Source: a virus
Lineage: Duplodnaviria; Caudoviricetes
DNA: 64,000 bases
IMG/VR virus record: IMGVR_UViG_3300037991_006036
Location: 32,001-96,000 of that record
Reading direction: 5' to 3' (one strand)
Shown here: one piece after another, positions 1-62,895 of the stretch
How positions within the stretch are numbered: position 1 is the first letter of the stretch
How the letters are laid out: every line of letters begins with the position of its first letter
The notes under the pieces: generated by a model
Told to the model about the DNA's origin: nothing
The model's database searches: none
Seen by the model: the letters and a program-made list of their open reading frames with translations, nothing else
Position numbers and translations under genes: made by a program

Positions 1-1273
1 GAGAACAAACTAAGAAGTTAGCTCCACCTCTTAATGTCTTAGCATGGATCTCGTTAGATACTTTTTGTACTTTAGTACCTAAAGTAGCAAACCAAGTACC
101 TTGGATGTATGCTTGACCATTAAATTGTGATGCTTCAAATGCATTAGTAGCAGAGTTAAACTCTTGACCTACTTTAGCAGACCAGAAGTCTGTAGAAGCA
201 GCTGATGAGATCAACATATCTAAGATCTCTAAGTCAATTTCCATAGAAACATACTCAGATAACATAGAAGTCAACTCACCTTCAGCATCTACTGAATGGT
301 ATGCGTTAAGGTCTTGTGCGAACTCAGGAGTCCAGCTTGCTTTCAACTTACGAGTCTTAGCAGTTACTGGAATACTTCTCATTTGCAACTCGATGCTTGG
401 GATGTTCAAGTCTGTATCCAAGTCTCTGTTTGTAGCAGATACTGGCTTAGCCTCGAAGTCACCTCTATCATCGTTAGTAGGTTGTACTGAGAATGATACA
501 GCTGTAGTAAATGATCCAGTTCCGATTGTTGTAGCTGCTGAAGATCCAGTTGTAATAAACTGAAGGTTTCCACCAACAACTTGTGTAAAGGCTTCAATTA
601 CATCTAGTTCAGTTGAACCTGAAAGTAATTGGAAAGATCTTACAGCTTCTGCATCAAATGCAGTCCCGTTAGAAGACGTCAAAGATGATGTAGGTATAGC
701 AATCGATTGTAATGTACCAAGCGATCCAGTGTAATCTCCATCATAAAATACGTCAGCTGCGCTAACAGATCCAGTAGCAATATAGTTAGTGGTTCTGTTT
801 ACTGAGTTGATTGAGTATCCAAATCTACCAGCTCCATAAAGTCCATCAGATGGATCAGAAGTAGTGTCAGTGATACCTTGTAATGTACCAGTTTGGTTTT
901 TATCCTGTGGAGCGAATCCAAATGGATTTTTATCATTAGCATATTTGAAATCTAGGTAGAATACTAGTCCTGATGGCAAGTTCATTGGCTGAACGCTAAC
1001 AAATTCCTTTGCTGCGATCTCAGCGTAAACTCTCCTAATCAAAGGAAGAGCAACTCCTGTCCACTGCTCATATCCAGCACCTGCAGTACCAGCTGTTGTA
1101 GCAGACCCCTCTTTCAAAAGCTGTTTTGCTTGGTTTTCTAAAAGAACAGAAACTGTTGCCTGCTCATTTTTATCACCAAGACCTTCTAATAGGCCCGTTC
1201 TAGACCATTTGGAGATCAAAGCCTTATTTTCTTGGCTTCTGTTTGTTTCTCCCATTCCTTCAAATAAATTCAT
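1..1273 (-). CDS. gp23: Major capsid protein, T4 gp23-like (3' end runs off the window)
   Basis: Not in the ORF track because its stop lies outside the window. Manual translation from ATG at 1273 gives MNLFEGMGETNRSQENKALISKWSRTGLLEGL...LLENQAKQLLKE|GS...LPLIRRVYAEIAAKEFVSVQPMNLPSGLVFYLDFKY...VTAKTRKLKASWTPEFAQDLNAYHSVDAEGELTSMLSEY, which contains the gp23 motifs. It follows the scaffold gene. Confidence 0.97.
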   Translation of the reverse strand, partial: MNLFEGMGETNRSQENKALISKWSRTGLLEGLGDKNEQATVSVLLENQAKQLLKEGSATTAGTAGAGYEQWTGVALPLIRRVYAEIAAKEFVSVQPMNLPSGLVFYLDFKYANDKNPFGFAPQDKNQTGTLQGITDTTSDPSDGLYGAGRFGYSINSVNRTTNYIATGSVSAADVFYDGDYTGSLGTLQSIAIPTSSLTSSNGTAFDAEAVRSFQLLSGSTELDVIEAFTQVVGGNLQFITTGSSAATTIGTGSFTTAVSFSVQPTNDDRGDFEAKPVSATNRDLDTDLNIPSIELQMRSIPVTAKTRKLKASWTPEFAQDLNAYHSVDAEGELTSMLSEYVSMEIDLEILDMLISSAASTDFWSAKVGQEFNSATNAFEASQFNGQAYIQGTWFATLGTKVQKVSNEIHAKTLRGGANFLVCS

Positions 1274-1300
1274 AGTGAATAATTTTTAGCTTTTTTTAGG

Positions 1301-2326
1301 TTACTTGTTGTAGTTAATTAATTCTGTAAAACGGTTATAAACTCCGTTACTGTCAGCAATCACTTTTTTAGTTCCTCTTGTAGGAGCTGAAGCGATACCT
1401 TCAGTTAGGTTTTTTGCTTTTCTTTTAGGAGCAGCCTTTCTTATAGGTCTTGCAGTCATTGATTCTGCTAATGTAGCGTATACTAATTTAGCTTCTCTAA
1501 CTGTTTTAACTCTATCAAAAGTTTCGATGATTTTCACTTTCTTAGTTTCACTCAATTCACCTTTCTTAAACAACTTGTTTACATAAAGTAATTTAGCGTT
1601 AAGTAAGTTCACTTCATTTAACTTAGAACGTAAAAACTTGATAACATTATAAGCCTCTTCTAACTCATCTTCGTCTTTCTCCTCATCCATGGATTTTTCA
1701 TCTTTTTCCTCTTCTCTAAGAGCTTTGATGATTTCTTCTAGATCGATATCTTCTTCCATCTCTCCATCATCTTCATCATATTCTTCTTTATAAAGACCTT
1801 TTTCCATTTTTTCTTTAGACGACATTTTTTCATCCATTGGCTCTTCGTCAGATTTCTCACCTTCTTCCATTTCTTCGGTTTCAGCGTGAGCTTCTTCTTC
1901 CATTTCGCCTTCGTCTTCATCTCCTTCTTCCATAGAATCTTCTTCTCCTTCTAACTCTCTTAGAATTTCTTCTAATTCGTCATCAGTCATTTCAGCTTCT
2001 TCGGCTTCAGCAGATGCTTCCTCTTCGGAACCTTCGTCAGAAACTTCAGCCTCTTCTTCTGATTCAACTTCGTCTTCAACTTCAGGCTCTCCGCCTTCAC
2101 CTTCTGACTTCATCTCCTCATCGTCATGAGACATCTCCATTGTTACCTCTTCATCTTCAGCTTCGTCCACTGGCTCTTCGTCTTCCATCTCTTCTTTGAT
2201 TTTGTGAGATAGCATAGACTGCAGCTTAGGAGCAAAGGCTTCTTCTAAAGCAAGTTTTGCGTTTGCTAATGCAGTTTCACGGACAGCTTTTGCGTCTGCG
2301 ATTGCATCTTTTAATAATTTGTTCAT
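1301..2326 (-). CDS. Prohead core/scaffold protein (gp22-like)
   Basis: 341 aa with a very acidic central region and coiled-coil ends, many [LIM]-x-E sites, located immediately upstream of the capsid gene. Confidence 0.8.
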   Translation of the reverse strand: MNKLLKDAIADAKAVRETALANAKLALEEAFAPKLQSMLSHKIKEEMEDEEPVDEAEDEEVTMEMSHDDEEMKSEGEGGEPEVEDEVESEEEAEVSDEGSEEEASAEAEEAEMTDDELEEILRELEGEEDSMEEGDEDEGEMEEEAHAETEEMEEGEKSDEEPMDEKMSSKEKMEKGLYKEEYDEDDGEMEEDIDLEEIIKALREEEKDEKSMDEEKDEDELEEAYNVIKFLRSKLNEVNLLNAKLLYVNKLFKKGELSETKKVKIIETFDRVKTVREAKLVYATLAESMTARPIRKAAPKRKAKNLTEGIASAPTRGTKKVIADSNGVYNRFTELINYNK

Positions 2327-2343
2327 GTGATTTGTTTTATGAA

Positions 2344-2423
2344 CGTCCTACAACTATTTTGAGTTGCAATGTGAATAGATTATTTAGGACGCCATATCAG
2401 GATAGCGTATTTAATCATACATA
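2344..2423 (-). promoter_or_regulatory. Structured 5' leader and possible variant late promoter of the scaffold/capsid operon
   Basis: Inverted repeats CGTCCTA (2344-2350)/TAGGACG (2385-2391) enclose CAACT/AGTTG. A competing stem lies at 2389-2408. TATGTAT (minus strand, within 2416-2423) is one mismatch from the TATTTAT motif. Confidence 0.4.
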
Positions 2424-2472
2424 GTATGAAGAAAAACCAAAACGTGTTTTTATTGTGAAAAAGTTGAAGTAT

Positions 2473-5401: not shown

Positions 5402-5402
5402 A

Positions 5403-12633: not shown

Positions 12634-12636
12634 AGT

Positions 12637-13527: not shown

Positions 13528-13530
13528 ACT

Positions 13531-13538
13531 TATAAATA
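13531..13538 (-). promoter_or_regulatory. Late promoter-like motif TATTTATA
   Basis: 3 nt before ATG 13527. Confidence 0.6.
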
Positions 13539-17074: not shown

Positions 17075-17614
17075 TTATAAAGAGTCTTTTGTATAAATAG
17101 GCTTCGTTTTTACTTTAGCCTTTAATTGAGCAACTTCTTTTGTAAGCTGATCAACTCTATCTAATAATTTTGTAATTATATTAGTAAGCGATTTGTCTTT
17201 TATATTTTCGTTTTTGTATAGATACAAATCCTCCAACACTGCACTACCGTTTACAATCATATCACACTGATCATATTCACCTTCTAATGTGGATTGTCCG
17301 ACGTATAATTTTTCCATAACACGTCTAGATATGATGTCTCTATTTTCAAGATCTTGTGTAATTGGATTATAAGCAAGGTAGTGTGAAATAAAATATATGT
17401 TATCAGATCGGAGTTTAGCATCTGTGTTGGGTGTACCGATTCTTACTAAGTAAGGATTAGTATTATGCTTTGCTTTTATATCAGCAACACTTTCACCACT
17501 CCAGCTTGTATATATATTTTTTAAACGTATCTTACCCAACGTCTCTCCAGTTGCTAATCCTTCGATTGGCTTAAAGGGTACCCTTGTGTTTCTTACTTTA
17601 TCGTTGTTTATCAT
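17075..17614 (-). CDS. Hypothetical tail-associated protein with C-terminal coiled coil
   Basis: 179 aa ending LLDRVDQLTKEVAQLKAK; last gene of a structural operon. Confidence 0.65.
   Translation of the reverse strand: MINNDKVRNTRVPFKPIEGLATGETLGKIRLKNIYTSWSGESVADIKAKHNTNPYLVRIGTPNTDAKLRSDNIYFISHYLAYNPITQDLENRDIISRRVMEKLYVGQSTLEGEYDQCDMIVNGSAVLEDLYLYKNENIKDKSLTNIITKLLDRVDQLTKEVAQLKAKVKTKPIYTKDSL
17092..17099 (-). promoter_or_regulatory. Late promoter-like motif TATTTATA
   Basis: 17 nt before ATG 17074. Confidence 0.65.
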
Positions 17615-19068
17615 TTTCCTACTAAAATTGCATCTTGCGCTTGATCTACTACAATAGAACCAATAGTTTCAGGTTCTATCAAACTTGGATCTGTTGATAC
17701 TCCTACTTGACAAAATTCCACATCATCTATAATACATCCAAAATATGTATCATCATCTAAACTTCCACTAGCTTCAAAAACCAATTGAGCGTTTGTTCCA
17801 TATTGTACTACGTTAATATTGAAACTTTCAATTAAGAATCCAGTAGCTGGATTAATGAAGGACATTGCTGGATTGTTTTTTATTCTAACAATGTTATTTT
17901 CGGGTGGATAGAATCCTGCTGTACCTGCTACTCGATCAACTGTATTTCCAACATTTGGTTTTACATTAAAAATGTATACAAGTAATTGACTATTTTCTCC
18001 GGTGTCAGGAAACATATCGATTGTAGTATCTTTTTTAAGGTTAAATTTTACATTAAAAATAGCACCATTTGTGTTAAAAATATCTACGGTATTTGTGAAA
18101 CCATTGACTGGTGTTGTCCATGTAGTGAACCATTCGACTCCAGTGTATGGTGGATTATATACACCAGTGGCAGAAGATCCAGTTGCTATTGTTGGAAAGA
18201 ACAATCTTCGTCGCTTCAATTCATTTGATAGGTTTATTTTAACTGCAGTAGTTTGTGAGTTGGATTGTGAAGCATATCCAGCTAAAGATGCACTTATGTC
18301 GTATCTTGAGATTCCAATGCCTCCTGCTAGATCGTAAAACCTTCCATCAAAAGATCCAGTAGATGCATCTCCAAAAGTTATCATTTCTGGATTAGTGCCG
18401 TTGGGAAGAGGGGCTTGTACTGCTACAGCTACACCATCCTCCTGATATCCTGGAATTGTAGAGCTGAATGCACTTGGTTGAGCATATGGTACAATTTGAG
18501 TATTGGTACCATCTCTGTGGATTGTTGAAGGTTCATATACGTTTTGAGTCCCATTTTTAATTGTTGTGTAAACCATTTTAGAATGAGTCATAAAAGGTTC
18601 TATTGCTTTCCAACTAGAAGTAATTGGGTATGCAGCTATTCCTCTTTCTGTAAAAGCACTATATCCGTTTGTGTAAAAAAAGCTAGCACTGCTATATGTA
18701 AAGGTGTATGTTGTTGTGTTTGCATAACTTTCTCCAGTGCTTTCATTTACTCTAGTGAACCCAGATTGAGTTGGTACTAAACAATTCCATAAAAAATCTG
18801 CTGCTGGACTTCCCCACGGTAATGCTCCTGCACTTGTTGATAATGGTGCAGATTCTCTTGTTAAGATTGTTGGATTATTAGCTCCACCGTAAATTGTGCC
18901 ATATTCATAGAAACCGTTTATCATTGATAAACCTTGACCATTCCATGAAGCAATATTATATAGATTTGGCCAACCGATTGGCAAAGTTAGGGATGCTGAG
19001 GGACACCACTTATAATAAAAATCAAACACATGTTTGTATACGTATCTTCCGTCTTCTAGTACTGGCAT
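17611..19068 (-). CDS. Putative virion structural protein
   Basis: 485 aa, Ser/Thr/Gly/Asn-rich with beta-type composition; in a late operon. Confidence 0.6.
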   Translation of the reverse strand: MPVLEDGRYVYKHVFDFYYKWCPSASLTLPIGWPNLYNIASWNGQGLSMINGFYEYGTIYGGANNPTILTRESAPLSTSAGALPWGSPAADFLWNCLVPTQSGFTRVNESTGESYANTTTYTFTYSSASFFYTNGYSAFTERGIAAYPITSSWKAIEPFMTHSKMVYTTIKNGTQNVYEPSTIHRDGTNTQIVPYAQPSAFSSTIPGYQEDGVAVAVQAPLPNGTNPEMITFGDASTGSFDGRFYDLAGGIGISRYDISASLAGYASQSNSQTTAVKINLSNELKRRRLFFPTIATGSSATGVYNPPYTGVEWFTTWTTPVNGFTNTVDIFNTNGAIFNVKFNLKKDTTIDMFPDTGENSQLLVYIFNVKPNVGNTVDRVAGTAGFYPPENNIVRIKNNPAMSFINPATGFLIESFNINVVQYGTNAQLVFEASGSLDDDTYFGCIIDDVEFCQVGVSTDPSLIEPETIGSIVVDQAQDAILVGK

Positions 19069-19077: not shown

Positions 19078-21210
19078 TTATGGGCTAAATGATCCACTCT
19101 GGACAGCAGTGAAGTATTGAAACTTTACTATGCTAGCTTGGCAGGTGTTTGACGGTATTTCAGTCTTTACATTAACCTGCAAATCATTCAAAAACGTAAC
19201 GTATTCGGACTGCTCTCCAGTGTAATTAAAGTATTCTATTTTAAAGTCTAACGATTGCGATATAGCAAGTATGTCGTCAATCTCAGTATTCATTGGTATT
19301 TGAAACTGTACTAAGTTTGGAGAAAAGCCGTTAATGGCTAGAGGTTTTATACTAACCTCACTCACATAAGCATTACCAGTTTCGTTAGCAAAGTTGATTG
19401 GTTTTGCTCTAAACACTGGACCTCCTAATCCTGATGCATCAGTTTTAAAGTCAAACTCAACTCTACCGTAATTTTTTTGTATATTTCTTTTGTTTTGCAC
19501 TCTACCTACAAATTTTCCAAAACGATTAAAACCTCCACCATACCTTGTTTTTTCTAAGTTTATATCTTTTAAGAAAGCTCTTGTGTAATTTTGAGGTAAA
19601 GATGTGTTTGTGCTTAGTGGATCACTATTCATATAAAGCTCCAACTCCATATTAGCATCTAAAGTTAGATTAAATCCTAATGTATATATTTGGTCAATGT
19701 TGTAGTTTTGATTAAATTGAGTTGTAAATAATCCTGAATGTGTGTGTGCACACTCTATTATTGCGCTTTCGTGCAATGATGAACTATTAATTGCTGGAAT
19801 AATCCCAGGATATATTGCTTCAGGTGTTTCTACTAAATAACTCCAATAATCTACTGCTATTTGTTGTTTTGTAAAATGACCTATTAATCTAAAATCCGAA
19901 TCTCTTTTAGCGTAGGTAGTTTGATTAGGAAATTGTGCATCTGTTAAATATTCCACTGGTTGCACAAGCGAATCATATATTACTTTATAATCTCCAGTTG
20001 ATGTGCCTTTTCTGTATGAAGTTTTTATCCTATAAACATCTCCACCAATAGGTTTAAGGTCTGCAAAGGTGGTTTCTAGATAATTCATATTTACTGTTGA
20101 GCTTGTAACAAACGATTGATCGGATGGTAAGTAGGCGATGCTCGCTTTAAATTGACTAGCTTCGCGAACTTTTTGAGTTGTAGTGAATCCTCCTCCCAAT
20201 ACATTATTATCTAGTGTTATTAGTTCAATTGGTTTACTAATCCTCATCTCTGTGTCTGTCATCACCTCTACTATGTTTGCAGTGAATCCTTCAAGTTGAG
20301 AAGACACGCTTCCGGATACTGAGAAGTTTGAAGGTATTGTAGGTAGGATTGTAGAGGGTGTGTTTGATGCATCAAAAAACTGAAAGGTTCCTCCTAGAAA
20401 ATCTTTTTGAATTGTTCTATCTGCTGATTTTACTGTTGTACTAAATCTGGTTGATAAATCTCGTCGATATCCGTTTTGGATTTCTGATATTTCTTGTCGT
20501 AGTGAAGAGTTGACACTATTTACAGTTGAAGGTTTTTGTAGTGGGTTTAGTAGTATTCTTTGTAAGTTTACATCTAAGATCTCTTCACTAGATTGAAAAT
20601 CTAGATCGTACCCCTTAAAACTAGGTGTGACTATTTTATAGTCGCTTGTGCTTGATGTGTATTGTAAAAACTGACTGCCACTCAAAGATGAAGCGTTTGT
20701 AAACTCTCTTTCTGGAGTTTGCACTTGGACTATGTCAATTAGAGGTGGATCATTGAATACTAGCTTTGAAGTGTTTCTTTCCATAGGTACAATATTAACA
20801 GCTCGCGACCATCTAACATTATAATCTCTTGAGGGAGACTCTGGTATTGGATTACCCTCTAGATCGATAATAGCTTCACCTACTAAGTAAACAACTGCTA
20901 AACCTTTAGCAGTAATATCATACACTTCAATTGTTATATAATAATCATTAAACCTATCAACATAATCGTTTACCTCAGCAAATATATTGTCACCATTTGC
21001 ATCAATTACTTCTATATCGATATCGCTATCTGCTCGAAGATTCAAGCCATTTCCTTTCAATCGCATTATATAACGACCACCTCCTAATGTATCAGAAAAC
21101 TCTGTGATCTGAAAATAATCAGGTGAATCAGGACTTGTATCTTCTACAAGATAATCTCTTGTTGAGTATCCTCTCGGTTGTGGTTTTTTATAAAAAGAAA
21201 CGAAGCTCAT
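19078..21210 (-). CDS. Putative tail/baseplate structural protein
   Basis: 710 aa, beta-rich; late motif 5 nt upstream of the ATG. Confidence 0.65.
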   Translation of the reverse strand: MSFVSFYKKPQPRGYSTRDYLVEDTSPDSPDYFQITEFSDTLGGGRYIMRLKGNGLNLRADSDIDIEVIDANGDNIFAEVNDYVDRFNDYYITIEVYDITAKGLAVVYLVGEAIIDLEGNPIPESPSRDYNVRWSRAVNIVPMERNTSKLVFNDPPLIDIVQVQTPEREFTNASSLSGSQFLQYTSSTSDYKIVTPSFKGYDLDFQSSEEILDVNLQRILLNPLQKPSTVNSVNSSLRQEISEIQNGYRRDLSTRFSTTVKSADRTIQKDFLGGTFQFFDASNTPSTILPTIPSNFSVSGSVSSQLEGFTANIVEVMTDTEMRISKPIELITLDNNVLGGGFTTTQKVREASQFKASIAYLPSDQSFVTSSTVNMNYLETTFADLKPIGGDVYRIKTSYRKGTSTGDYKVIYDSLVQPVEYLTDAQFPNQTTYAKRDSDFRLIGHFTKQQIAVDYWSYLVETPEAIYPGIIPAINSSSLHESAIIECAHTHSGLFTTQFNQNYNIDQIYTLGFNLTLDANMELELYMNSDPLSTNTSLPQNYTRAFLKDINLEKTRYGGGFNRFGKFVGRVQNKRNIQKNYGRVEFDFKTDASGLGGPVFRAKPINFANETGNAYVSEVSIKPLAINGFSPNLVQFQIPMNTEIDDILAISQSLDFKIEYFNYTGEQSEYVTFLNDLQVNVKTEIPSNTCQASIVKFQYFTAVQSGSFSP

Positions 21211-26128: not shown

Positions 26129-26791
26129 TTAATATACTTTTAGAAAAGATAACATTTTTGGTTCGTGTAAGTATTCTAAATGATCTATTCCAAAGTACTT
26201 TGCTTTAATCTTAGATTGTTCATACTCATCAAAGCTATCTTCTGATATTAACGGCTTCAAATCCTCGTAAACTTTCTCCCAATCTTGACTCAAAATTAAA
26301 TCTTCTAAGAATCTTACATGTTGCTTATATAATTCAAAATCATGAAAATCATGTTCGATGTGCATTAACTCAAAAACTTTACCATCCTCTATCCAATCAA
26401 TACAAAAATCAGCCATATACTTAGGCTTAATATTGATTAGTTTTTGCAGACGTTTGTTGTGTTTGGCAAACTCTTTTAGCTGCTCTAACGCTTCACCAGC
26501 ATACCCGTATCTGGTGTTTAAATGGCAGTGGTCTAAGAAAATGTGGGGGTGAGGTGTGTCTTGAGACATCCAATCTTGAAAGCATGCAGATGCATCTGTA
26601 GGTCGTCCAGGTACAAGTATATGGCCTGGGATGTTGGATTGTTTATGGTATTCGCCTTCTACATAAGTTAATTCGTATCCAATACGATCAAAAAAATCTG
26701 GTATGATCATTTTTTCAAATACGGTTTCATCTTCTAAAGGTTTTATAATATATGGGTAATCAACTAAATGGTAATTAAGTTTACTTATCAT
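26129..26791 (-). CDS. Hypothetical protein
   Basis: 220 aa, coupled to neighbours; no family recognised. Confidence 0.7.
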   Translation of the reverse strand: MISKLNYHLVDYPYIIKPLEDETVFEKMIIPDFFDRIGYELTYVEGEYHKQSNIPGHILVPGRPTDASACFQDWMSQDTPHPHIFLDHCHLNTRYGYAGEALEQLKEFAKHNKRLQKLINIKPKYMADFCIDWIEDGKVFELMHIEHDFHDFELYKQHVRFLEDLILSQDWEKVYEDLKPLISEDSFDEYEQSKIKAKYFGIDHLEYLHEPKMLSFLKVY

Positions 26792-29717
26792 ATCTAACTA
26801 TAAAAGTTGTATCTACGTTGTTTGGTAGTTTTAATGGAAATCCTAGTTTTGCAACTGCTAACATTTCTCCATATTCGTTATATAATCCTATAGCAGTTAC
26901 GTATGGTTTAAAATCAGATCCAGTTGTGAATGGTCTAAATTCGTATTGGTTTGAAGCAGGATTATATTCTTGTATGGTGGGATTATTGCTACGATTAAAC
27001 TCTCCTGCCCCAACTGTACATGCTACCTCTTTTTCGTATATCGTATGAGTTCCTCGTGCTGACACTTCTTTTATGTCCATGTAACGAGATATAATTGATC
27101 CTAGAACCATTTGACCGTGATTGTAAAACACATTACCTACTACTGTTGTAGCACGCCCAAGTGTATGATAAGATAAAAATCTATCACTATCACTCATCAC
27201 TCCTGCATACATTTTTATGTTGTCAATTAATCCATCAAACCCTCGATCCGCTGATACATTGTTACCTATATATATGTCAGACTTGTTGGAGCATCCCGCT
27301 ACATCTGTGACGTCGGATCCAGTTGTTTGTAAGACATTGTCTATGTACATCATCAATTTTGAAGAGCTTAGTTGACAAGTTACGTGATGCAATTGGTTTA
27401 ATGTTAAACTGCCAGAAACTTCTGCTTGCTCAAACAAATTATCACGTTTGAATCGTAAAATCGTACTTCCGGAATCCATAGTAATAACATATGGAGTTCG
27501 ATCGTCGCTTGCGTATGAGAACACATTGCCATTTATATCTACTCCATGATCCTCAGAGGTGCCTTGTTTGGTTAAAACTACAGAACCGGAAGGGTGTGCA
27601 GAGTGGGCAGTGGGTCTTATCATAAAAGTAAACGTAAAGTCGTTATTTTCAAAATTGTAAGACTGTCTATAATTTTGTACTGCTGCTGGTTGTATGTGAA
27701 CGCTTGAAGATAAGCTACTGCTAAATGTTGGAACCACTCCTAGTAGATCGATGGGTTGAGGTACTGGTAAGGTTGTTCCAGCAATATCGGTAAATTTTAT
27801 GTTTTTGTAGTGAGTTTCCATTACCCAATTACCGCGATTAAAGCTACTTGTCAAGTTAACTGCTCCTTTGCCATTATACTTATACAAATCTCTAGTAGGC
27901 CATTCTCCTACGCTAGTTATTGATAATGATTCACTTACTCTTGTTGTTGGAGATATTGGTGAAATCAATCCTCCTGATACATATAGATTACCGTTAAGGT
28001 CATCTGTTATTTCTATAGATTCGTTATTGCTACCGCTTATATTATAGTTTGCTTTTAGTAATAAAGAGGATTGCTGAATACCTTCTCCAAATTTTGTTTG
28101 AGCAAGATTTACTATATATGCTTGATCTTCTAAATCTCTAATTTGGTTGTTAATATTTCCATTACCGAACGCTGCTTTAGTGTTACTATAAAAATCTTCG
28201 TAAAATAAATGGTTTATAGATTTATGTACAACTCGTTGGAATTTTTTATTGACCGTGATTGGTTCGTAATATTGGAAATGTGGATTGCCTTGATCAAAGA
28301 GTGTGTTTAAGGGGTTGTAGCTTGGGTGTGATGGTATAGGATTGTAATCTGCTTTGTATACAGAAAAAGTTGGTTCTGAGTTTATATCAAATTGAATAAA
28401 TCTTTCACTGTATGATGAGCTAAATCCAACAAATATGTCTGAACTTGATACATCTGCTTTTAGTGCTGTTCCTATACGTAAATCTCCTTTTGTAGCTCCA
28501 AAATGATCTGGATCTGAAATTTCGTATGTATCAGGATTGATTGTAAAAAACACAGACTCTTGCAAACTACCTGTACTTCCTGCGAATACTCCTATTGTTG
28601 CTGGTGTTTGGTTAGTTTGTATTGTTGCTTTAACTTCACGTTTCAATGCTACCCACTTTCTTGCATCTACGACTTTTTCAAAAGATGCTACATTATAGGC
28701 AGTGTTAACTGCATACAAATCAATTCCAACTCTGCCATCACGATACACAACATGCACTTTACTTGTCTGTAAAGTTGCTGATCCAGATATAAAGTTGGTT
28801 TTGTCCATTAGAATATCTGCAACGCCTGATGTTACGAGTTGTGATACTGCTGTATCTTTTACTACAAATAATTTTCCGTCTTCAAATAATGCAAAGTATC
28901 TGTTTTGAGTACCACAATATAAAAATGTTTTTAAAGCAGTTGGTGTTGTTGCTCCATAAACACTCGCTCCATATACAGAATAACCAAAAGCACTTCCCGG
29001 ATTTACAGATCCACTAAAACTAGCGGTTAGTGTTTGTGGAAATGATCCAGTAAAAGAAACAGCATAAGCTCCTAAAGAGCCGGTAGATGCAATTGCTAAA
29101 ATTTTATCATTTACGCTTTTACCTTCTGCATTTACAGCACTAAATGATCCAGTAAGAGTGGGTGCAATAGAGGTTGGCATTATTACACCTTCTGCTACAG
29201 ATGATGTATAAGCTAGTGAGTTAGGAAAGTATAATTTTGAAGTTATGCCTTTTTCACCAGCAACATAAACGTAGTCAAAACTAGCTGATGGTGTTGAGGA
29301 AATACTTGCAATGCTTGTTACTTTTGAGCTGGTATAACATGCTTTTGCGTGTGTAGGGTTTTTTGTTAAAGTTCGTGAAAACGCACTTATTGCTCCAAAT
29401 CCATTAGCTGTTGAAGCTGCATGAATACTGCTTTGAAGTTGACCTACACCATAAGCAGTTACACCGTTTAAGTTTGGTGTACTTATATCATTAAGTATTT
29501 CGTAATTGTCGTTCTGATTAAGTCGTAACAATCTGCTACTACTTACGTCGGTTGTATAAAGGTGTGTACCGCTGTATAATGTTCCAACACTAACTGGACT
29601 AGCTTGTACATTAGAGTAATAGTTTTTGTAACAAACAGTGCTAAACCATTTCTTGTGTGCTTTAAACGGGGTGAGCCGAATATCAGATGCGTCTAGATTT
29701 TTGAAAACTCCTGCCAT
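26781..29717 (-). CDS. Tail/baseplate structural protein with LamG/ConA-like domain
   Basis: DFTFTFMIRP...LHHVT...MYIDN...FDGLIDNIKMY; C-terminal PYVTAIGLYN...LAVAKL shared with the neighbouring gene. Confidence 0.75.
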   Translation of the reverse strand: MAGVFKNLDASDIRLTPFKAHKKWFSTVCYKNYYSNVQASPVSVGTLYSGTHLYTTDVSSSRLLRLNQNDNYEILNDISTPNLNGVTAYGVGQLQSSIHAASTANGFGAISAFSRTLTKNPTHAKACYTSSKVTSIASISSTPSASFDYVYVAGEKGITSKLYFPNSLAYTSSVAEGVIMPTSIAPTLTGSFSAVNAEGKSVNDKILAIASTGSLGAYAVSFTGSFPQTLTASFSGSVNPGSAFGYSVYGASVYGATTPTALKTFLYCGTQNRYFALFEDGKLFVVKDTAVSQLVTSGVADILMDKTNFISGSATLQTSKVHVVYRDGRVGIDLYAVNTAYNVASFEKVVDARKWVALKREVKATIQTNQTPATIGVFAGSTGSLQESVFFTINPDTYEISDPDHFGATKGDLRIGTALKADVSSSDIFVGFSSSYSERFIQFDINSEPTFSVYKADYNPIPSHPSYNPLNTLFDQGNPHFQYYEPITVNKKFQRVVHKSINHLFYEDFYSNTKAAFGNGNINNQIRDLEDQAYIVNLAQTKFGEGIQQSSLLLKANYNISGSNNESIEITDDLNGNLYVSGGLISPISPTTRVSESLSITSVGEWPTRDLYKYNGKGAVNLTSSFNRGNWVMETHYKNIKFTDIAGTTLPVPQPIDLLGVVPTFSSSLSSSVHIQPAAVQNYRQSYNFENNDFTFTFMIRPTAHSAHPSGSVVLTKQGTSEDHGVDINGNVFSYASDDRTPYVITMDSGSTILRFKRDNLFEQAEVSGSLTLNQLHHVTCQLSSSKLMMYIDNVLQTTGSDVTDVAGCSNKSDIYIGNNVSADRGFDGLIDNIKMYAGVMSDSDRFLSYHTLGRATTVVGNVFYNHGQMVLGSIISRYMDIKEVSARGTHTIYEKEVACTVGAGEFNRSNNPTIQEYNPASNQYEFRPFTTGSDFKPYVTAIGLYNEYGEMLAVAKLGFPLKLPNNVDTTFIVRYDK

Positions 29718-29795: not shown

Positions 29796-30857
29796 TTAGT
29801 AGTCTAGCTTTACCTTCACTAATGCTTCTCTATTGAAACTCTTTAGTAATGGCTTGCTCAATTTAGCAACAGCTACTAATCTATTATTATCATCATACAT
29901 TCCAATTGTCGTAACATAAACACTTGGATTTCTTAACATGCTAGCATGCTTAAAAGTTCCAGTACTTCCAGTTACAAATGTTGGATTGTTTGAAAAGTTA
30001 AAGTTTTTATTTGTTACACGAACAAAATAGTGTGTAGAGGTTATTTTTTCTTCACTCCTTGCTGCAAAATATGTAGATGCAGAAATGTACATTGATGCTG
30101 TTACTGCATTTTTTGGTTGGGTTCCGGCTGCTGATAATGTAGTTGCATTACCAGTATTGAAATTCATTCCTGTTTCTGTTTTTAATCTTGTAGCATTAAA
30201 TACCAACACTCCGTGGTCTGGATAGAATAATCCATACTGTGTGTTGGAGGCTGTTACTGCTCCAGATCCACTAAAGATTCCAACTACACGTCCAGCTTCG
30301 TTTACAGTTGGTGTTTCTTCTTCACCACTATTATCGATAAACGACATATAAGAACCTACAGATAAACCACCACTAGAAATTCGTAGTTCCCAGTTTCCTG
30401 GATCAATTTTTTGTCTAAATCTTGCTCGAGCAACATTAATTACCATAATGTCGTCTGGTGTATCACTTCCAAAAGTAAATGCTGTATCTGTAGGAGGTAG
30501 TAGTTGGTTTCTGTACTGTGAGTATATAGCTCTTGTTGGTGTATCGTTGGCGTTTTGACCAACAGTATTAGGATCTCCAAATGATCCACTTCCTAATCTA
30601 TTACCATAAGCTACAGCAAACTGCACAGCTGCTGAAGCAGCCTCGTTAGTGTCTTGTGGATTTCTGTGAAGTACGTTTACATAATAATCACCAGATTGTG
30701 ATACCTGAGCTGATGATGTAAAGAATCCTATTCCGGTTGAACCTCCGTAAGATTGTGAATATGGATTCATATTTTCTGACCATACTGGTTGTGATACTGT
30801 TTGAGTGTCCCCAGGTACTATGTCGTCTCCTTGAAAGTCTTTATATATTTCTGCCAT
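29796..30857 (-). CDS. Tail/baseplate structural protein
   Basis: C-terminal YVTTIGMYDDNNRLVAVAKLSKPL; NFSNNPTF motif shared with 26781-29717. Confidence 0.7.
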   Translation of the reverse strand: MAEIYKDFQGDDIVPGDTQTVSQPVWSENMNPYSQSYGGSTGIGFFTSSAQVSQSGDYYVNVLHRNPQDTNEAASAAVQFAVAYGNRLGSGSFGDPNTVGQNANDTPTRAIYSQYRNQLLPPTDTAFTFGSDTPDDIMVINVARARFRQKIDPGNWELRISSGGLSVGSYMSFIDNSGEEETPTVNEAGRVVGIFSGSGAVTASNTQYGLFYPDHGVLVFNATRLKTETGMNFNTGNATTLSAAGTQPKNAVTASMYISASTYFAARSEEKITSTHYFVRVTNKNFNFSNNPTFVTGSTGTFKHASMLRNPSVYVTTIGMYDDNNRLVAVAKLSKPLLKSFNREALVKVKLDY

Positions 30858-34600: not shown

Positions 34601-36311
34601 CAGTTGCATCTGTGCCTAAGGTGTAATTCCATAACTCGTCTAAAGCTGCACCGTTTTCAAATTCAAATCCTAAATTTTGACCAATTAGATATAACAAATC
34701 CTTACTTAATCCAGCAGTTAATTCTTGACTTTTATTATATTTGTTGGTGTATTCGTCAATATATGGAAGTATATCATCAAAGTAGTGACCAGCAACTTTT
34801 ACGACTTGTGTAAAAGTGTCATTATCTGAATCTTCTACGATGTGGGCTGGTAAGTTTCTTGTTAATGCGTTTGTATTATTTTGATCATATATACTTGCTG
34901 AAGCTAAGGCACCTACATACCACTCTTCAACTTGAGAAGATGTAAACGAATAAAGAGGATAAGGTTTAGTAGTTGTTGACTTAGGCCATGTAGAGGGATA
35001 AAACTCACCATAAGAGCTTGTTTCGTAGCTAGCTGATTCGTAGTAAAGATATCTTTCGTAAGCATCAAATCCTCCAATAACACTACTCTTTCGTTTAATG
35101 TTTGTTAAGATGTTTGTGTTGAACGCTGCACTACTAGATGCTGATGAGCTTACTAGACCAGTTAGGTCAGTAGTTAAGGCTGCTATTCTTGCATCGTAGC
35201 TTTCAATTAACCTTACTTTGTGTCTAAAGTTAAATAAACGAGCTTCCGCATTACTGTATGTGATAAAGTTTTCATATTTTCGAAAATCGACATTAATATC
35301 AATATTTTCAATAAGCGAGCTACTTGTTAATCTATCTTGTAGTTGATAATATACACTATTAGCAGATCCCGTATCAGTTCCTACTAAATCGTCTTTATCT
35401 TTATATTCTGTAGAAACTCCAGTTCTAATTCTAGCTAATATATCAAAATTAGGTCCAGCTATTTCTAAAGTTCTAGGTTTTAGATCTGGTGGTATTAGTG
35501 TTATATCTGTACTAAAGTCTCCGCTAACCTCTTGTGCTAACCATAACTCATCACCTACAACAATGTCTGCAGGGATTGGAGCAGCTAGTTTGAATATAAT
35601 ACTATAGGGTGATGAGTTTATTGTAAACTTGTCTTGTACATAATCAAATACTGGAAAGGATAAATTTGCATTCTTAAAAAGAAATAGATTGCTTAGTATT
35701 TGGCTTTTTGGTGTAATGAATAAACCACTCTCAAACTGGTTTAAGAAGCTAGTATTGTCAAGTGTAGATGATAATATTGGTCGTACTCTAAGCTCTAATC
35801 CGTTGGAGCTTATTTCTTGAACAACAATCTTATGACCATCTCCAGATCCTAATATGTTTCTGTGAAACTTATAAACTGGTTTGTATCTTCCAGCAACGTA
35901 TCCCAACTCTTGTATGTCTTCTTCAACGTTAAGTAATACGGATACGTTTGGTGATGGATCGTTTGATATGCTAGACTGTCTACCTTCTTCCTTATATCTT
36001 TCGATTGTAAAATCTGGTACACGGTAGTTTGTTCCTAAGTACGCATCTACAGCGTTAAAAAGATCCAATCTAACTACATCGTTTGGATAGTTGGTTAGAT
36101 TTTGTGCTTTAGTACCAAAAGCCTGTACTGGAGATGTATTATCCTGTTGCGGGGTTTCTTGGTCACGGCTTGCGGTCACGATCGGTGTAATGCCATCAGA
36201 CACATCTGTTGGTTTAGATGGTGATGTTAAAGGTGCTCGCTCTTGTTGTTTTGATATTAGAGGTTTTGATTCTCCAACAACTTGCCTAATATTTTTTGGT
36301 CCGTATGCCAC
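31674..36311 (-). CDS. Large baseplate wedge-like structural protein with LamG-like domain
   Basis: 1545 aa; LPYLVQTKGTERCLRALINCFG resembles the P2 gpI/gp7-type KGT motif; TIEMRV...WHHIAL...FSGSIQEFRMW is LamG-like. Confidence 0.7.
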   Translation of the reverse strand: MAYGPKNIRQVVGESKPLISKQQERAPLTSPSKPTDVSDGITPIVTASRDQETPQQDNTSPVQAFGTKAQNLTNYPNDVVRLDLFNAVDAYLGTNYRVPDFTIERYKEEGRQSSISNDPSPNVSVLLNVEEDIQELGYVAGRYKPVYKFHRNILGSGDGHKIVVQEISSNGLELRVRPILSSTLDNTSFLNQFESGLFITPKSQILSNLFLFKNANLSFPVFDYVQDKFTINSSPYSIIFKLAAPIPADIVVGDELWLAQEVSGDFSTDITLIPPDLKPRTLEIAGPNFDILARIRTGVSTEYKDKDDLVGTDTGSANSVYYQLQDRLTSSSLIENIDINVDFRKYENFITYSNAEARLFNFRHKVRLIESYDARIAALTTDLTGLVSSSASSSAAFNTNILTNIKRKSSVIGGFDAYERYLYYESASYETSSYGEFYPSTWPKSTTTKPYPLYSFTSSQVEEWYVGALASASIYDQNNTNALTRNLPAHIVEDSDNDTFTQVVKVAGHYFDDILPYIDEYTNKYNKSQELTAGLSKDLLYLIGQNLGFEFENGAALDELWNYTLGTDATGSVNTAYETSTSDTMKETWKRLINNLPYLVQTKGTERCLRALINCFGIPESILRIKEYGGHEGGFDKKSDFVYDRFNYAFVAGYNGQTTGLPAQQVKVPWQRLSGSNATAQTIEMRVRMADSQTKDQTIMEVPGRWKIRAFQSGSGNHIGFFLSSGSGATWATSSVSSSIYDTDTEDPYTNQDTRWHHIALRREAQDDDITTDQTYRLIVKTSRYNKVVSTTTASLFVDGNDSSSYNYSFTNSGSLWIPGSGSYTLADSHSMDLFSGSIQEFRMWSSELQDAILDNHTLTPTSFQGNTDGVFTGSTSSFDSLMYRLTLGTDNKTTLDDHYPATSSFNSQHPNQDITQPSASFYNVTSSAYFRVIEQNSLEWPDLGANRSISSKIRIDNTTLAGNQLFKDSKAEKPLTDNNPPDNSKLGVFLSPTNEVNQDIAEQFGGLSIDDYIGNPAQLKLDDYTDLQGLARVYSKKYKGTNKPNEYIRLLQHYNAALFKLIKKFVPYRANTQTGLLIEPTILERSKLPTPPPVAEDLLLTASLDLGPEKVFPPKGEVEDPTNTPLTHYVAAATIGGDLSDYLQITSSAQDLLPKQNTASIDLQILQPSGLYGVVAESTPPIDMTGEPTGSIFEMREGAAIDLGVNGTGHNSRYEGSKYIYMTYNSSGSNPRVLTFVTASRYDDWQAINPTIITSRFSERSAPDEPKYQKDIWSYKALEQLYPVTYGGIVTGSVNTLLTSSATVDENIWVTNFGLRISSSYSGTTQYSSPLNTTAYWQISGSRIGTNNGGGSGPYDGLNWRATTTGRYTGSVLLNSFFSEREDASTKDIRYRITGNFASSTGTGRVELHLQYGKEGSAYSDSIVVTNTNNVAGNDQSFDFITQADGPNLVITIQSFRGAAAAFSAINNLRVQPLNYFESVQDYHLWNAKGMVNARYEGCKLTSTDYNVDSPDTVDGGPVITVTEGGGKQLAVKPGKQAGTFAIR

Positions 36312-42133: not shown

Positions 42134-43255
42134 TTATTGTCTTTCTATCTTGAATATAAAATTGTGATCCCGTACTTCATAACTCACACCATCTTCTTCT
42201 GGTACTTTAATCATTATTCTATAATATCGCTCAGGCTGAAAGCTATCTAAATGTAATCTAAAGAAGCTGCCTCGGCTGTCTGATGCCATATATGTGTATT
42301 TTGAAAATGGTATCACAGCATCATCAGAATTTGCATAATAGACAGCATATTGTGATCCAGTTGGAAGTCTGAATGAGTCTAAGAATAGTGATGATGTTTG
42401 GTATACTAGAGCTGGATATCTGTATCGTGGAGCGAAATTAAACTTAGGTCTTGCTGTTTCTTTGTAAACTTCTCTCAAGTTAGTACACACTAAATTGTAA
42501 TCTTCCTCTGTATCTAATACTGCAAGTGAACCGGTATTTGTTTGATAACTAGACTCGTCATACCTTGCTTCAATTACTGGAGAATATATAGTGTGAGTTT
42601 CTTTGCTATAAAATCCTAAGTTTCTAAACTTGTTCAAGGATGTTTCATCAGCTTCAGTCTTCTTTATAATTAACCCATTAAAGCTAATAGATCCGTTCTG
42701 TACTTCTCGTATAATAGATGTGATATCCATATCAACATCTGTAGTTGTATAGCTGAAAGATTGTGTAGCTTGGCTTGATGTATACCAGGTTCCTCCTCCA
42801 GGATTAACTGAATATGATCCAGTTGATAGTGCCGCAAAGGATGCGGTCAACCATGCTGTGCTTGGTGTTTCCTTTCCTTCTCTATAATACCAACTACATC
42901 CTTCTGTCGTTGCGGGAGTAGTTCCTTTTTTTCCTATTCCCATATTCCATGATTGTGATACTGGAAAGGCTTCTATTGTGTAGTCGAGTGGAATCTCATC
43001 TGCTTGTGTAGCATATAATCTTAATCCAAAATCAAAAGTATTTGGATCGTATCCTAAATCTACAATACTTTTTGATATAGCGGTATAATCAAAATCTAGT
43101 AATATACGAGAATTAAAGCTCGACGTTGCAGCAGCTCCAGTAGATCCTGTGGCTGCTTGTTTTGATATCTCCAATATACTATCCAAACCGGTATTTGTCT
43201 CCGGTGAGTTTTCATATATTGTTGCGTCCTTTGTTGGGTAAAATCTTAATATCAT
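42134..43255 (-). CDS. Structural protein with DNRLRE-like domain
   Basis: YPTKDATIYE, SRILLDFD, VSQSWNMG, FYSKET...PVIE. Confidence 0.6.
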   Translation of the reverse strand: MILRFYPTKDATIYENSPETNTGLDSILEISKQAATGSTGAAATSSFNSRILLDFDYTAISKSIVDLGYDPNTFDFGLRLYATQADEIPLDYTIEAFPVSQSWNMGIGKKGTTPATTEGCSWYYREGKETPSTAWLTASFAALSTGSYSVNPGGGTWYTSSQATQSFSYTTTDVDMDITSIIREVQNGSISFNGLIIKKTEADETSLNKFRNLGFYSKETHTIYSPVIEARYDESSYQTNTGSLAVLDTEEDYNLVCTNLREVYKETARPKFNFAPRYRYPALVYQTSSLFLDSFRLPTGSQYAVYYANSDDAVIPFSKYTYMASDSRGSFFRLHLDSFQPERYYRIMIKVPEEDGVSYEVRDHNFIFKIERQ

Positions 43256-57557: not shown

Positions 57558-58928
57558 TTAGCCTGAGAAGTCGTATTTGTTAGCATCTCCAACTCGTCCA
57601 TTAAAATAAACTCTTCCAGCCGCATATGCTGTAAATTCAAAGTAATCACCTTTATAAAAATTCCCTACAGAGTTGTTCACAATCTGAGGAACATTACTTG
57701 CTGTGTAAGCAACAAAATTTGAACCACCAAATGTAGTCTGGGTACTTACGTGTCCATACAGAGTAGTAGCATCGAATGTAAAGGTAACACCGGTTCCAAC
57801 AGACATGCCTGGGTTGAAAAGAAACTTATAAACATCACCAGGTAACGCACTATTAAAGTTTATAGTAACATCGTTATCAGTTGTACTAAAGTTGCAGAGA
57901 TGCAATGCTCCAGGCACTAATGAGCTACTCAATTCTCCTGCAGATGCATTTGTTAAACTAACATTAGCAGGACTGCTTAGTCCACCAATCCAATCTTGAC
58001 GATTACTACAACTAATATTTGCCATAGATGCAGTTCCATTAGCTGATGTTTGCACATTACCAAAAGTTGCAGTAACTGTACTAGGATTGTACTGACATCC
58101 TTGACCTGATTTTACATTAACACCATCATTGCCACTTGTTGCACTGCCAAAATGAAAGAAAAAATTAGTATTACTTGTTTCTGCAGTAATTGCTACGTTA
58201 GTTGCAGCTGTTGCAGTAGCTACTGCACCAACCACATTATCTCCACTTATGTGTGATGAAGTTATTGCATGGGATGCTGTTGTTGCTGTTGTTGCTGATG
58301 TTGCTGTTGTTGCATTTCCATATAATGGACCCACAAACCTAGAAGCACTAACAATTCCAGATGCTGTTATATCAGCAGTTGGTCCATCTAAATTTAGATT
58401 ACCTGATACATGTAATTTAGCTGTAGGCGAAGTTGTGCCAATACCAACTTTACTTGTTGATCCATCTGTAAAAAATAATTTAGAATCTGCTTCTCCTTCT
58501 ATTCTGACATCTAAATTTTGTGAAGCTTCGTTGATAGTTAGTTCACTCACTGAATCTTGAGTGAAATCCATAAAGTTAATATTACCAACTGTGACGTTTA
58601 TATCATCATCTGTAAAATTAATGAATGTATCAGTATCACCGCTATGTTTAATGTATTGCTTAACTAATACGTCTCCATCTACAGTAAGCGATCCAGTTAT
58701 ACTAGCGTTACCGTTGTGAGAACCATCCCACTCACCAGTTACTCCAGTTATATTTGTTCCGTCTCCTGAAAATTTTCCAACATAAGATCCAGTAAAGGAT
58801 CCGGAAAAAGATCCAGATGCAACAACTTCAGTTGCTTCTGAACCGTCTAAAGCATCGATAATTCTTGTGATGTGTTCCGCATCAATAGTATTGGTATTCG
58901 AAATACCAGTTCTTGAGATTGTTGCCAT
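57558..58928 (-). CDS. Tail fibre-like protein
   Basis: SGSFSGSFTGS repeats, KVGIGTTSPTAKLHVSG fibre motif, GNATTATSATTATTAS; late motif upstream. Confidence 0.75.
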   Translation of the reverse strand: MATISRTGISNTNTIDAEHITRIIDALDGSEATEVVASGSFSGSFTGSYVGKFSGDGTNITGVTGEWDGSHNGNASITGSLTVDGDVLVKQYIKHSGDTDTFINFTDDDINVTVGNINFMDFTQDSVSELTINEASQNLDVRIEGEADSKLFFTDGSTSKVGIGTTSPTAKLHVSGNLNLDGPTADITASGIVSASRFVGPLYGNATTATSATTATTASHAITSSHISGDNVVGAVATATAATNVAITAETSNTNFFFHFGSATSGNDGVNVKSGQGCQYNPSTVTATFGNVQTSANGTASMANISCSNRQDWIGGLSSPANVSLTNASAGELSSSLVPGALHLCNFSTTDNDVTINFNSALPGDVYKFLFNPGMSVGTGVTFTFDATTLYGHVSTQTTFGGSNFVAYTASNVPQIVNNSVGNFYKGDYFEFTAYAAGRVYFNGRVGDANKYDFSG

Positions 58929-58952: not shown

Positions 58953-58965
58953 GCTAGGAATAAGA

Positions 58966-59472: not shown

Positions 59473-59478
59473 AGACCT

Positions 59479-60795: not shown

Positions 60796-60796
60796 A

Positions 60797-61630: not shown

Positions 61631-61636
61631 AATTAA

Positions 61637-61885
61637 TTATTCTATTGTCCAATCATTTCCAGCTAATCGTGTTAAACATTCCGCATGAGTACCTCTCCAA
61701 GTTAAAGACACACTACCATCAGTAATAAATGTAGGTTCGTTTGCTGTAAACCATTTTAATGTAAATTGTGATTCGTCGACTGATAATCTGACTGTATCAG
61801 CTGATGTTTCCATCACTTGTGAAAAGTCTACCTTATCTATGTCTGTTGCGTTTGCGAATGCGTATGTTCTATCTGAATAATCCAT
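61637..61885 (-). CDS. Small partner protein of the LamG gene
   Basis: 82 aa, KVDFSQVMETSADTVRLSVD...LKW; tightly spaced between neighbours. Confidence 0.7.
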   Translation of the reverse strand: MDYSDRTYAFANATDIDKVDFSQVMETSADTVRLSVDESQFTLKWFTANEPTFITDGSVSLTWRGTHAECLTRLAGNDWTIE

Positions 61886-61887
61886 TA

Positions 61888-62895
61888 CTAATAAGTTTTG
61901 TAATAATTGTTAATATTAGTCTCTATAGCTGCTCTGTCAGTAGTCTTGTCTGCTAAATACATTATTAATTCAACTGGGTTTGCTGCATTATTAGATAATG
62001 CTTTATCGGGATAAAAAGTACTCCCCATTCGTGGAATAGTAGTCTCACTTCCTGATGCTATTTTATTTCCTTCAAAATATAAAGCTGTTTCTCCTGGTGC
62101 TTCATTAACAATAGCTGTTATTGTGTTTAGTGCATCTTGAGTGTGAGTTGCTGATCCTGATATATGACCTATGGTGCCATAAGGAGCATTCGACCCTGTT
62201 TCAAGAGTTATGACATCACTTACTGTTTCTATTATTTCTTTACCTGCAGTGTGTTCAGCTAAATTTAGATAAAATTGTGATGCTGCATGAGCGTAGTTGG
62301 TTACAAACACTGTATGAGATGTTCCTGGATCTATGTCTTGGAGTCTTGCAGTAGCAGCATATTGTTTGTAAGTTTCGTTTAGATATAAGATACTGCCCGA
62401 AACATACACATTACCACTTGTATCTGATACGAATAGAGAATTAGATCCAGCATTAATAGAATTTCTCACAGTTCCTTGCGATTGATCATACCAAGTATGC
62501 AATCTTCCCTGATTTCCATCTAAAAATGTACTTAAACTTTGTGTATCTAAATAATTGTCAATAAACCCAATATCCAATTCAGCATCATCAGAAGCACGTC
62601 TTACCCTAATAGCTGAGCCAGTGTAATCAGTACGTAGCTTTCTTAAAGACCATGCTAAATAAACGTCATCTCCATAATCATCTAACAGAAGTGATGTTGA
62701 TCCGCCAGGATTAGATCCTGCAGCCATTGCTCTTGCTGCTAACTCCTGTCGAAGATGTTCTTGATATCGTAAAAACGCTTCTTTTTTTCTTCGCTGATTT
62801 TGTTTCTTTTTAGCCTCAAACGCTTCTTCCTCTTGCAGTTTTTGTTTTGCTGCCCAATCTCGAATATGATCTGCATTTCTGAGAAAGTCTTTCAT
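61888..62895 (-). CDS. Common-leader protein C with ConA-like (AbfB-like) domain
   Basis: Leader; AWSLRKLRTDYTGSAIRVRRASDDAELDIGF, TWYDQS, IETNINNYY. Confidence 0.75.
   Translation of the reverse strand: MKDFLRNADHIRDWAAKQKLQEEEAFEAKKKQNQRRKKEAFLRYQEHLRQELAARAMAAGSNPGGSTSLLLDDYGDDVYLAWSLRKLRTDYTGSAIRVRRASDDAELDIGFIDNYLDTQSLSTFLDGNQGRLHTWYDQSQGTVRNSINAGSNSLFVSDTSGNVYVSGSILYLNETYKQYAATARLQDIDPGTSHTVFVTNYAHAASQFYLNLAEHTAGKEIIETVSDVITLETGSNAPYGTIGHISGSATHTQDALNTITAIVNEAPGETALYFEGNKIASGSETTIPRMGSTFYPDKALSNNAANPVELIMYLADKTTDRAAIETNINNYYKTY

Follow-up and report, generated by a model that had tools for sequence, protein, structure and literature searches.

In bacteria, soluble glycosyltransferases (GTs), such as the autotransporter heptosyltransferases and GtfA/B on serine-rich repeat proteins, modify many Ser/Thr residues of adhesins before export or assembly, GtfA being a GT4-type enzyme with the GT-B fold. 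The general O-glycosylation sequon of Bacteroidota, D-[S/T]-[A/I/L/V/M/T], belongs to a periplasmic, host-encoded system. In phages, virion glycosylation by the phage's own enzymes has, to our knowledge, been documented chemically in only a few mycobacteriophages so far, and we know of no short ordered sequon of the [S/T]-[G/A/S]-S kind described for them. In these mycobacteriophages, O-glycosylation by phage-encoded GTs was reportedly shown by chemical means by Freeman et al. (2023, Cell Host Microbe), with glycans said to be present on capsid and tail-tube subunits. Among eukaryotic viruses, the chlorovirus PBCV-1 glycosylates its capsid protein Vp54 with virus-encoded cytoplasmic machinery at the atypical sequons NTXT and NIPG (PMC9614988). 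Herein, we focus on the tripeptide [S/T]-[G/A/S]-S in a 64-kb stretch of phage DNA (the window; positions 32001-96000 of the 122,293-bp IMG/VR viral contig IMGVR_UViG_3300037991_006036), where a model-made first-pass annotation had counted it by eye in a series of outer virion proteins and read it as a likely recognition site for an enzyme that modifies the particle.

The capsid protein of this contig is gp23-like, with Microcystis phage Mel-JY01 (50%), Flavobacterium phage immuto (46-52%), and Rhodothermus phage RM378 (35%) as nearest cultured relatives, and the phage is a distantly T4-like aquatic myovirus of the RM378/immuto/Mel-JY01 group. As in the mycobacteriophages, the system that we propose here from its genes would combine phage-encoded soluble GTs with a glycan coat on capsid and tail proteins; it differs in that a tripeptide is spread over 9-11 outer proteins and in its carriers, which are myoviruses of Bacteroidota, Rhodothermota, and cyanobacteria. 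With the bacterial adhesins it would have in common that the Ser/Thr acceptors lie in short loops of beta-rich surface proteins, but the adhesin acceptors are repeats or low-complexity tracts, whereas the sites here are isolated and occur in unrelated folds. The Bacteroidota sequon, like the one proposed here, counts three residues and concerns O-glycosylation, and it comes from the likely host phylum of this phage, yet D-[ST]-[AILVMT] is not enriched on the whole contig (126 vs 128.2 expected; expected counts throughout come from shuffles of each protein), and neither is the N-glycosylation sequon N-x-[ST] (296 vs 317.6). The chloroviruses share with the proposed system a cytoplasmic machinery of their own, and their glycosyltransferase B736L (3oy2), the acceptor of which is undefined (PMC9614988), is the nearest solved relative of the clade's GT-B enzyme (E = 1.4e-12). 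However, they are eukaryotic viruses with N-linkage to Asn, whereas the candidate acceptors here are Ser/Thr.

In the window as a whole, [ST][GAS]S is found 130 times, against 48.9 copies expected from whole-protein shuffles. The excess persists when shuffling is confined to blocks of 30, 15, or 10 residues (z = 10-11); with 10-residue blocks the expectation is 59.5 (z = 10.3), and [ST]GS alone is then found 62 times against 18.6 (z = 10.5). The first-pass annotation had allowed that the enrichment might vanish once Ser, Thr, and Gly content was controlled for, and it survives such local-composition shuffles at a z of about 10. Its counts by eye also turned out nearly exact: they agree for the capsid protein (7), 17611-19068 (7), 19078-21210 (6), 29796-30857 (7), 42134-43255 (8), and 61888-62895 (5), and come close for 26781-29717 (23, by eye about 22), the tail fibre at 57558-58928 (11, about 11), and 31674-36311 (38, about 30).

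The enrichment depends strictly on the order and identity of the residues. Among all tripeptides of the window, TGS (32 vs 7.6) shows the largest over-representation and SGS (30 vs 7.8) the next largest, whereas the permuted forms G[ST]S (14 vs 16), GS[ST] (21 vs 15.5), and [ST]SG (17 vs 15) and the substituted forms SGT (6 vs 7.7) and [ST][GAS]T (50 vs 49) are at baseline, as are S[ST]G, TGT, and [ST]G[A/N/D] (about 1x). Shuffling in 10-residue blocks gives the same picture, with G[ST]S, GS[ST], [ST]SG, and SGT at 0.65-1.15x. Across the whole contig, only Ser (53 vs 15) and Thr (45 vs 15) are enriched before GS, and position 2 favors Gly (98 vs 30), Ala (62 vs 29), and Ser (56 vs 33), with Asn depleted (9 vs 24.7) and Asp flat. 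Position 3 is exclusive, as Ser is the sole enriched residue there (Thr 32 vs 29). The flanks tend to be hydrophobic (fractions of 0.49 and 0.52 vs a background of 0.31), with Ile, Ala, Phe, and Val enriched before the motif and Phe, Leu, and Val after it. Ser codons at position 3 follow background usage, and in the enriched genes the true reading frame stands at 4.1x and the five others at 0.0-1.5x, two of these having too few expected copies to inform. Since only the true frame is enriched, the position-3 codons are at background, and the signal is order-specific, the motif is an ordered protein-level word, just as its degenerate pattern states. The earlier remark that the codons vary and that this is no DNA repeat thus holds.

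Eleven proteins of the contig account for 173 copies (41.6 expected), and the other 129 proteins together hold 43 (48.5 expected). The eleven are the capsid protein, the sheath, a spike-like protein of 1168 amino acids (aa), a 473-aa beta-helix protein, a baseplate/fiber block of 978-, 353-, 1545-, and 373-aa proteins, a 456-aa fiber protein, one lectin-like protein, and a 485-aa protein, of which the sheath, the spike-like, and the beta-helix protein lie outside the window on the same contig (the others are listed in Table 1). The 710-aa neighbor of the 485-aa protein shows weak enrichment and is not among the eleven. Counts are nil or at baseline in the portal, terminase, tape measure, gp6-like wedge, Mre11-Rad50 fusion, a secreted protein discussed below, and two lectin-like paralogues, and the first-pass annotation, which had seen essentially none in terminase, portal, and the 1063-aa Mre11-Rad50, is confirmed by a count of 0 in each. 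Leaving aside the 485-aa protein, the excess is restricted to outer virion proteins. A depletion in non-virion proteins was also looked for and is not significant (43 vs 48.5), the zero-count subset being a post hoc selection.

Pfam signatures among the enriched proteins are LamG/ConA, CBM96, and DUF1565, and the PHROGs gave no matches for motif-rich proteins except the capsid. The 978-aa protein is a partial orthologue of immuto gp105, and the 456-aa fiber protein resembles the N-terminus of immuto tail spike gp101 and of the contig's own 1168-aa spike-like protein. Paralogy among the motif-rich proteins is almost absent, and duplicated domains were therefore rejected as the source of the copies.

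Table 1. Motif-bearing proteins of the window, with observed versus expected counts of [S/T]-[G/A/S]-S.
Protein	Position in window	Strand	Counts and annotation
Major capsid protein (gp23-like), first 424 of 540 aa	2..1273	-	7 vs 2.4; phrog_138 major head protein
485-aa unannotated protein	17611..19068	-	7 vs 1.8, p = 0.003 (contig-wide count 7 vs 1.9, p = 0.002); weak leads to carbohydrate-binding module (CBM)-like beta-sandwich (Atlas)
710-aa unannotated protein	19078..21210	-	6 vs 2.5, p = 0.045 (contig-wide count 6 vs 2.4, p = 0.044); weak CBM / Big_5 leads
978-aa distal baseplate/fiber protein, LamG/ConA-like domain	26781..29717	-	23 vs 5.7, z = 7.6; Laminin_G_3 E = 4e-14
353-aa baseplate-block protein, immuto gp106 orthologue	29796..30857	-	7 vs 1.7
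1545-aa giant baseplate/fiber protein, immuto gp109-like	31674..36311	-	38 vs 7.2, z = 11.9; BLAST match to immuto gp109
373-aa CBM96-like peripheral baseplate protein, adjoins gp6-like wedge	42134..43255	-	8 vs 2.0; CBM96 in Pfam
456-aa tail-fiber/spike N-terminal-type protein	57558..58928	-	11 vs 4.0; includes run SGSFSGSFTGSY
335-aa lectin-like protein	61888..62895	-	5 vs 1.1

Within the proteins, the motif is equally selective. All seven copies in the capsid protein fall in its insertion domain (aa 167-254, nucleotides ~510-775). Over 63 capsid homologues, this 109-residue domain holds 5.1 motifs where 1.2 are expected from its own composition, and the remaining ~430 residues hold 0.21 where 1.0 is expected. 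A gp23-type insertion domain presumably sits on the outer capsid surface, as we take from the published gp23/gp24 structures. In the sheath, the C-terminal core can be aligned with T4 gp18, and 11 of the 13 motifs fall outside it, at residues 100-464. Judged from these alignments, the capsid and sheath motifs sit in the outward, non-conserved domains.

The 373-aa baseplate protein offers a closer look, as its AlphaFold2 model is good (mean predicted local distance difference test, pLDDT, of 87), matches 8wab in fold, and resembles CBM96 modules; no bridge by sequence from this protein to a solved structure was found. In this model, 83% of the motif residues are in coil vs 56% of the other small or hydroxyl residues, and the local context varies: motifs follow a strand, precede one, lie in long coil, and once fall in a helix. 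Proximity to a secondary-structure boundary (within 2 residues) is uninformative here, 74% of all residues satisfying it. For the capsid, the full-length model reached a pLDDT of only 44 (shallow alignment), and the insertion domain alone (pLDDT 62-82) was used. Mapping onto structures, as the first-pass annotation had advised, places the motifs mostly in coil in the good model and apparently in outward domains of capsid and sheath, which answers its worry about buried turns in part only. A generic glycine beta-turn (type I'/II') was considered and rejected. Because position 2 is depleted in Asn and enriched in Ala and Ser, the motif is not a positive-phi turn; Asp is flat there, and homologous T4 folds lack the motif.

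The motif sites are also conserved. Among 79 homologues of the 373-aa baseplate protein, 12 motif columns can be recognized, in which positions 1 and 3 are near-invariant and position 2 alternates between Gly, Ala, and Ser; one set of columns, for example, reads Thr (79/79), Gly or Ala, Ser (77/79), and then Trp/Tyr/Phe. The same holds for three sites of the capsid insertion domain in its 63 homologues, almost invariant at positions 1 and 3 and with Gly/Ala/Ser swaps at position 2. Motif Ser/Thr residues are retained more often than other Ser/Thr residues, both in the 373-aa protein (0.85 vs 0.64, p = 0.01) and in the variable insertion domain of the capsid (0.69 vs 0.48, p = 0.04). Compared with immuto, 5/8 and 4/7 motif columns are common to the conserved baseplate proteins at 36-41% identity, the latter being the 353-aa protein at 41%. 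The surface domains of capsid and sheath have few motif positions in common with immuto at similar densities.

Comparison of relatives, another check advised by the first-pass annotation, showed the motif to be clade-specific. [ST]GS is in excess in immuto (119 vs 48), Mel-JY01 (105 vs 37), and RM378 (53 vs 19, with [ST]GT flat at 16 vs 16), and in neither T4 (16 vs 21; TGS 2 vs 9.8) nor crAss001 (11 vs 16). In three kyanoviruses, S-PM2, HTVC008M, and BUCT-ZZ01, [ST]GS stands at 1.4-1.5x with [ST]GT equally raised. S-PM2 and HTVC008M have a mild rise of [ST]G[ST] (~1.5x) with Ser and Thr alike at position 3, and SGT ranks 13th among their tripeptides, unlike the Ser-specific signal of the RM378/immuto/Mel-JY01 clade. 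As immuto, Mel-JY01, and RM378 are positive and T4 and crAss001 negative, it is the lineage and not the fold that carries the motif, which tracks the phages across hosts of three phyla and is no general trait of T4-type virion folds. An effect of a Bacteroidota host was likewise rejected: crAss001 infects Bacteroides and lacks the motif, whereas Mel-JY01 (cyanobacterial host) and RM378 (Rhodothermus) possess it. We conclude that hydrophobic-[S/T]-[G/A/S]-S-hydrophobic is under selection in the outward parts of virion proteins throughout this one large clade.

Which enzymes could read such a word? The first-pass annotation saw no glycosyltransferase in the window, and on the whole contig there is no match to PF00535 or PF00534 either, so that its proposed search of the remaining genome came up empty for the contig itself; every relative examined, on the other hand, encodes GTs and sugar-nucleotide pathways. 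A conserved GT-B glycosyltransferase, mostly set within a sugar-nucleotide island, is present in all eight of them, namely immuto, Mel-JY01, RM378, and the long IMG/VR relatives G001-G005, the last with gp181-like GT-B genes in 5/5 genomes (three of them at least 90% complete), and no homologue of the gp181-like enzyme was found in five control genomes. In immuto, an 11-kb glycosylation island is led by two GT-B genes (Glycos_transf_1) and one GT2 gene; Mel-JY01 keeps these leading genes in synteny, and the first of them has a clear orthologue in RM378. The closest long relative, G001 (capsid identity 70%), bears a 20-kb sugar-nucleotide island. Its glycosyltransferases are the GT-B pair, two GT2, and a GT10-like enzyme, and they are accompanied by sugar-nucleotide dehydratases, reductases, methyltransferases, an aminotransferase, and a nucleotidyltransferase. 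Lipid-carrier machinery was not seen among the 25 listed of the 26 Pfam families matched in this island. Metagenomes contain at least 8,000 homologues of the GT-B family, which apparently also occurs on two further long contigs with related capsids; a 167,742-bp contig with an 89%-identical capsid is not among the 120 GT-B matches listed.

The G001 island lies at 111-131 kb and consists of 20 co-oriented genes, among which are a thiamine pyrophosphate-dependent enzyme and a C-methyltransferase, so that a branched or otherwise unusual deoxy-amino sugar is suggested.

The GTs of the relatives have no segment resembling a transmembrane helix (maximum Kyte-Doolittle 19-residue window of 1.41 or less), and they are predicted to be soluble and cytoplasmic and to be expressed with the late genes. 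The immuto island is immediately preceded by the late-type word TATTTATA, which is likewise found upstream of the terminase, portal, sheath, and tube genes. A role of the island in DNA glycosylation is disfavored for immuto by published nucleoside mass spectrometry, and is unlikely because its DNA holds only dA, dC, dT, and formyl-dPreQ1 (10.1101/2023.04.13.536721).

Our proposal is that the motif is an O-glycosylation acceptor site read by soluble phage glycosyltransferases, a reading that the sequence evidence leaves, in our judgment, evenly poised. Late in infection, the soluble phage-encoded GTs (the conserved GT-B pair and the GT2) would act in the cytoplasm, supplied by the phage's sugar-nucleotide island, and would put a glycan on a Ser or Thr of short, exposed loops that have buried residues on either side. 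The result would be a coat over the capsid, sheath, baseplate periphery, and fibers. We infer from the genes that the GTs act on virion proteins, that the motif is their recognition site, and which residue is modified. The wider claim, that soluble virus-encoded GT-B enzymes read the linear sequon hydrophobic-[S/T]-[G/A/S]-S-hydrophobic across a very abundant clade of aquatic myoviruses, is offered tentatively and with somewhat less assurance; homologues of the acceptor proteins and of the enzyme run to thousands each in metagenomes.

Several points weigh against O-glycosylation, the evidence for which consists of sequences and predicted structure. The contig, at an estimated 71% completeness, carries no GT (as searched with the two Pfam families above), and one on the genome of this very phage is a prediction from that incompleteness and from colinearity with G001. 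The absence is in itself uninformative because the contig is incomplete and its right end maps ~13 kb short of the G001-equivalent island. Non-virion proteins carry the motif at close to its chance frequency (0.89x), and the enriched 485- and 710-aa proteins may be virion components, which is conjecture. The GT island may also have a different target, for instance the glycans of the host surface. Moreover, the positive genomes all belong to one clade, so that the co-occurrence of motif and GTs may be a single historical event rather than statistically independent evidence.

An artefact of composition or nucleotides, arising from Ser/Thr/Gly-rich, low-complexity, or repeated sequence, deserves hardly any credence. 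Although the enriched proteins are richer in these three residues than the others, the excess is kept under all local block shuffles, the permuted tripeptides stay at baseline, the codons are mixed, the other five frames are flat, and internal paralogy is lacking, and on these controls the artefact was rejected. A different matter is a lineage-specific structural or assembly loop that is never modified, built from two hydroxyls with a small residue between them and capping or joining beta-strands; such an exposed loop would be favored in the beta-sandwich and beta-helix modules of the clade, with purifying selection preserving it for the sake of folding, solubility, or contacts between subunits. 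We regard this as a genuine possibility, although we incline against it. The near-invariance of positions 1 and 3 in the conserved baseplate proteins speaks for it, as do the motif columns held in common with immuto, the hydrophobic flanks and small position 2 that a tight loop would be expected to have, the all-beta, carbohydrate-binding-type look of all enriched proteins, and the missing enzyme on the contig. It sits poorly with the T4 homologues (gp23 insertion domain, gp18 outer domains, fibers), which lack the motif, with the heterogeneous secondary-structure context, and with a position 2 that is not turn-like. It also has to accommodate lectin-like paralogues with the same leader but 5, 0, and 0 copies, and motif sites that come and go in variable domains without loss of density. 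The first-pass reading of a modifying-enzyme site thus gains from the local enrichment, the outward domains, and the GTs in all relatives examined, but the strong positional conservation and the hydrophobic flanks suit a structural loop equally well. It is improbable, finally, that the motif serves another modification (phosphorylation, acylation, methylation) or is bound by a phage chaperone, by an assembly factor, or by a ligand from the environment. Specificity and conservation do not name the reader, and methylation of a phage tail protein by a host enzyme is reported from another system (PMC13445384). However, the clade yielded no conserved candidate kinase or acyltransferase, and the sole clade-conserved enzyme set found beside late genes is the glycosylation set.

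If O-glycosylation holds true, no protein-glycosylation sequon would have been defined in tailed phages before this one, and glycosylation sites could be predicted from sequence alone. Abundant marine and freshwater phages would then commonly wear a glycan coat, which would bear on adsorption and grazing, on how sticky the particles are and how fast they decay, and on their recognition by immune systems. A direct test is feasible, as immuto, Mel-JY01, and RM378 are all cultured. Even if purely structural, the motif would still be a sharp clade-specific signature of exposed loops that predicts outward-facing phage proteins and domains.

Some further features of the contig complete the picture. 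The large open reading frames (ORFs) of the window are all on the minus strand; the contig has no terminal repeat, and its left start falls within an ORF. In its right arm, a Por_Secre_tail domain was detected (E = 3e-9) in the contig region 98851-101577 (window coordinates 66851-69577), where a 908-aa protein probably bears this sorting domain of the type IX secretion system; the domain implies a Bacteroidota host, and the protein has no motif copy where 1.3 are expected. A run of 10 N interrupts a tape-measure-like gene (contig 12587-15763) at contig 15288-15298. The three lectin-like proteins at 59671-62895 have a common N-terminal segment of 50-100 residues (53-81% identity) and diverge afterward, and the two paralogues that share this leader with the enriched one hold 0 vs 1.1 (59671-60795) and 0 vs 0.9 copies (60797-61630). 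The 1545-aa ORF starts with GTG, its earliest in-frame ATG being 584 codons further on, and its long form is supported by the tight spacing to the upstream gene (ends 36349).

The word (C)TATTTATA is found within 60 nucleotides upstream of 16 minus-strand genes of the contig, with 25 sites on the coding strand vs 8 on the other. In the window, it precedes the genes ending at 8118, 9708, 17074, 29717, 46070, 54253, and 58928, among others, and in immuto it precedes 24 genes, those for terminase, portal, sheath, and tube among them. We regard it as a candidate late promoter element of the clade, distinct from the TATAAATA of T4. A 753-aa protein (14813-17074) with its own copy of this late-type promoter word shows partial similarity to immuto gp088, annotated as a NadR-type nicotinamide mononucleotide adenylyltransferase, and shows no motif enrichment (2 vs 0.9).

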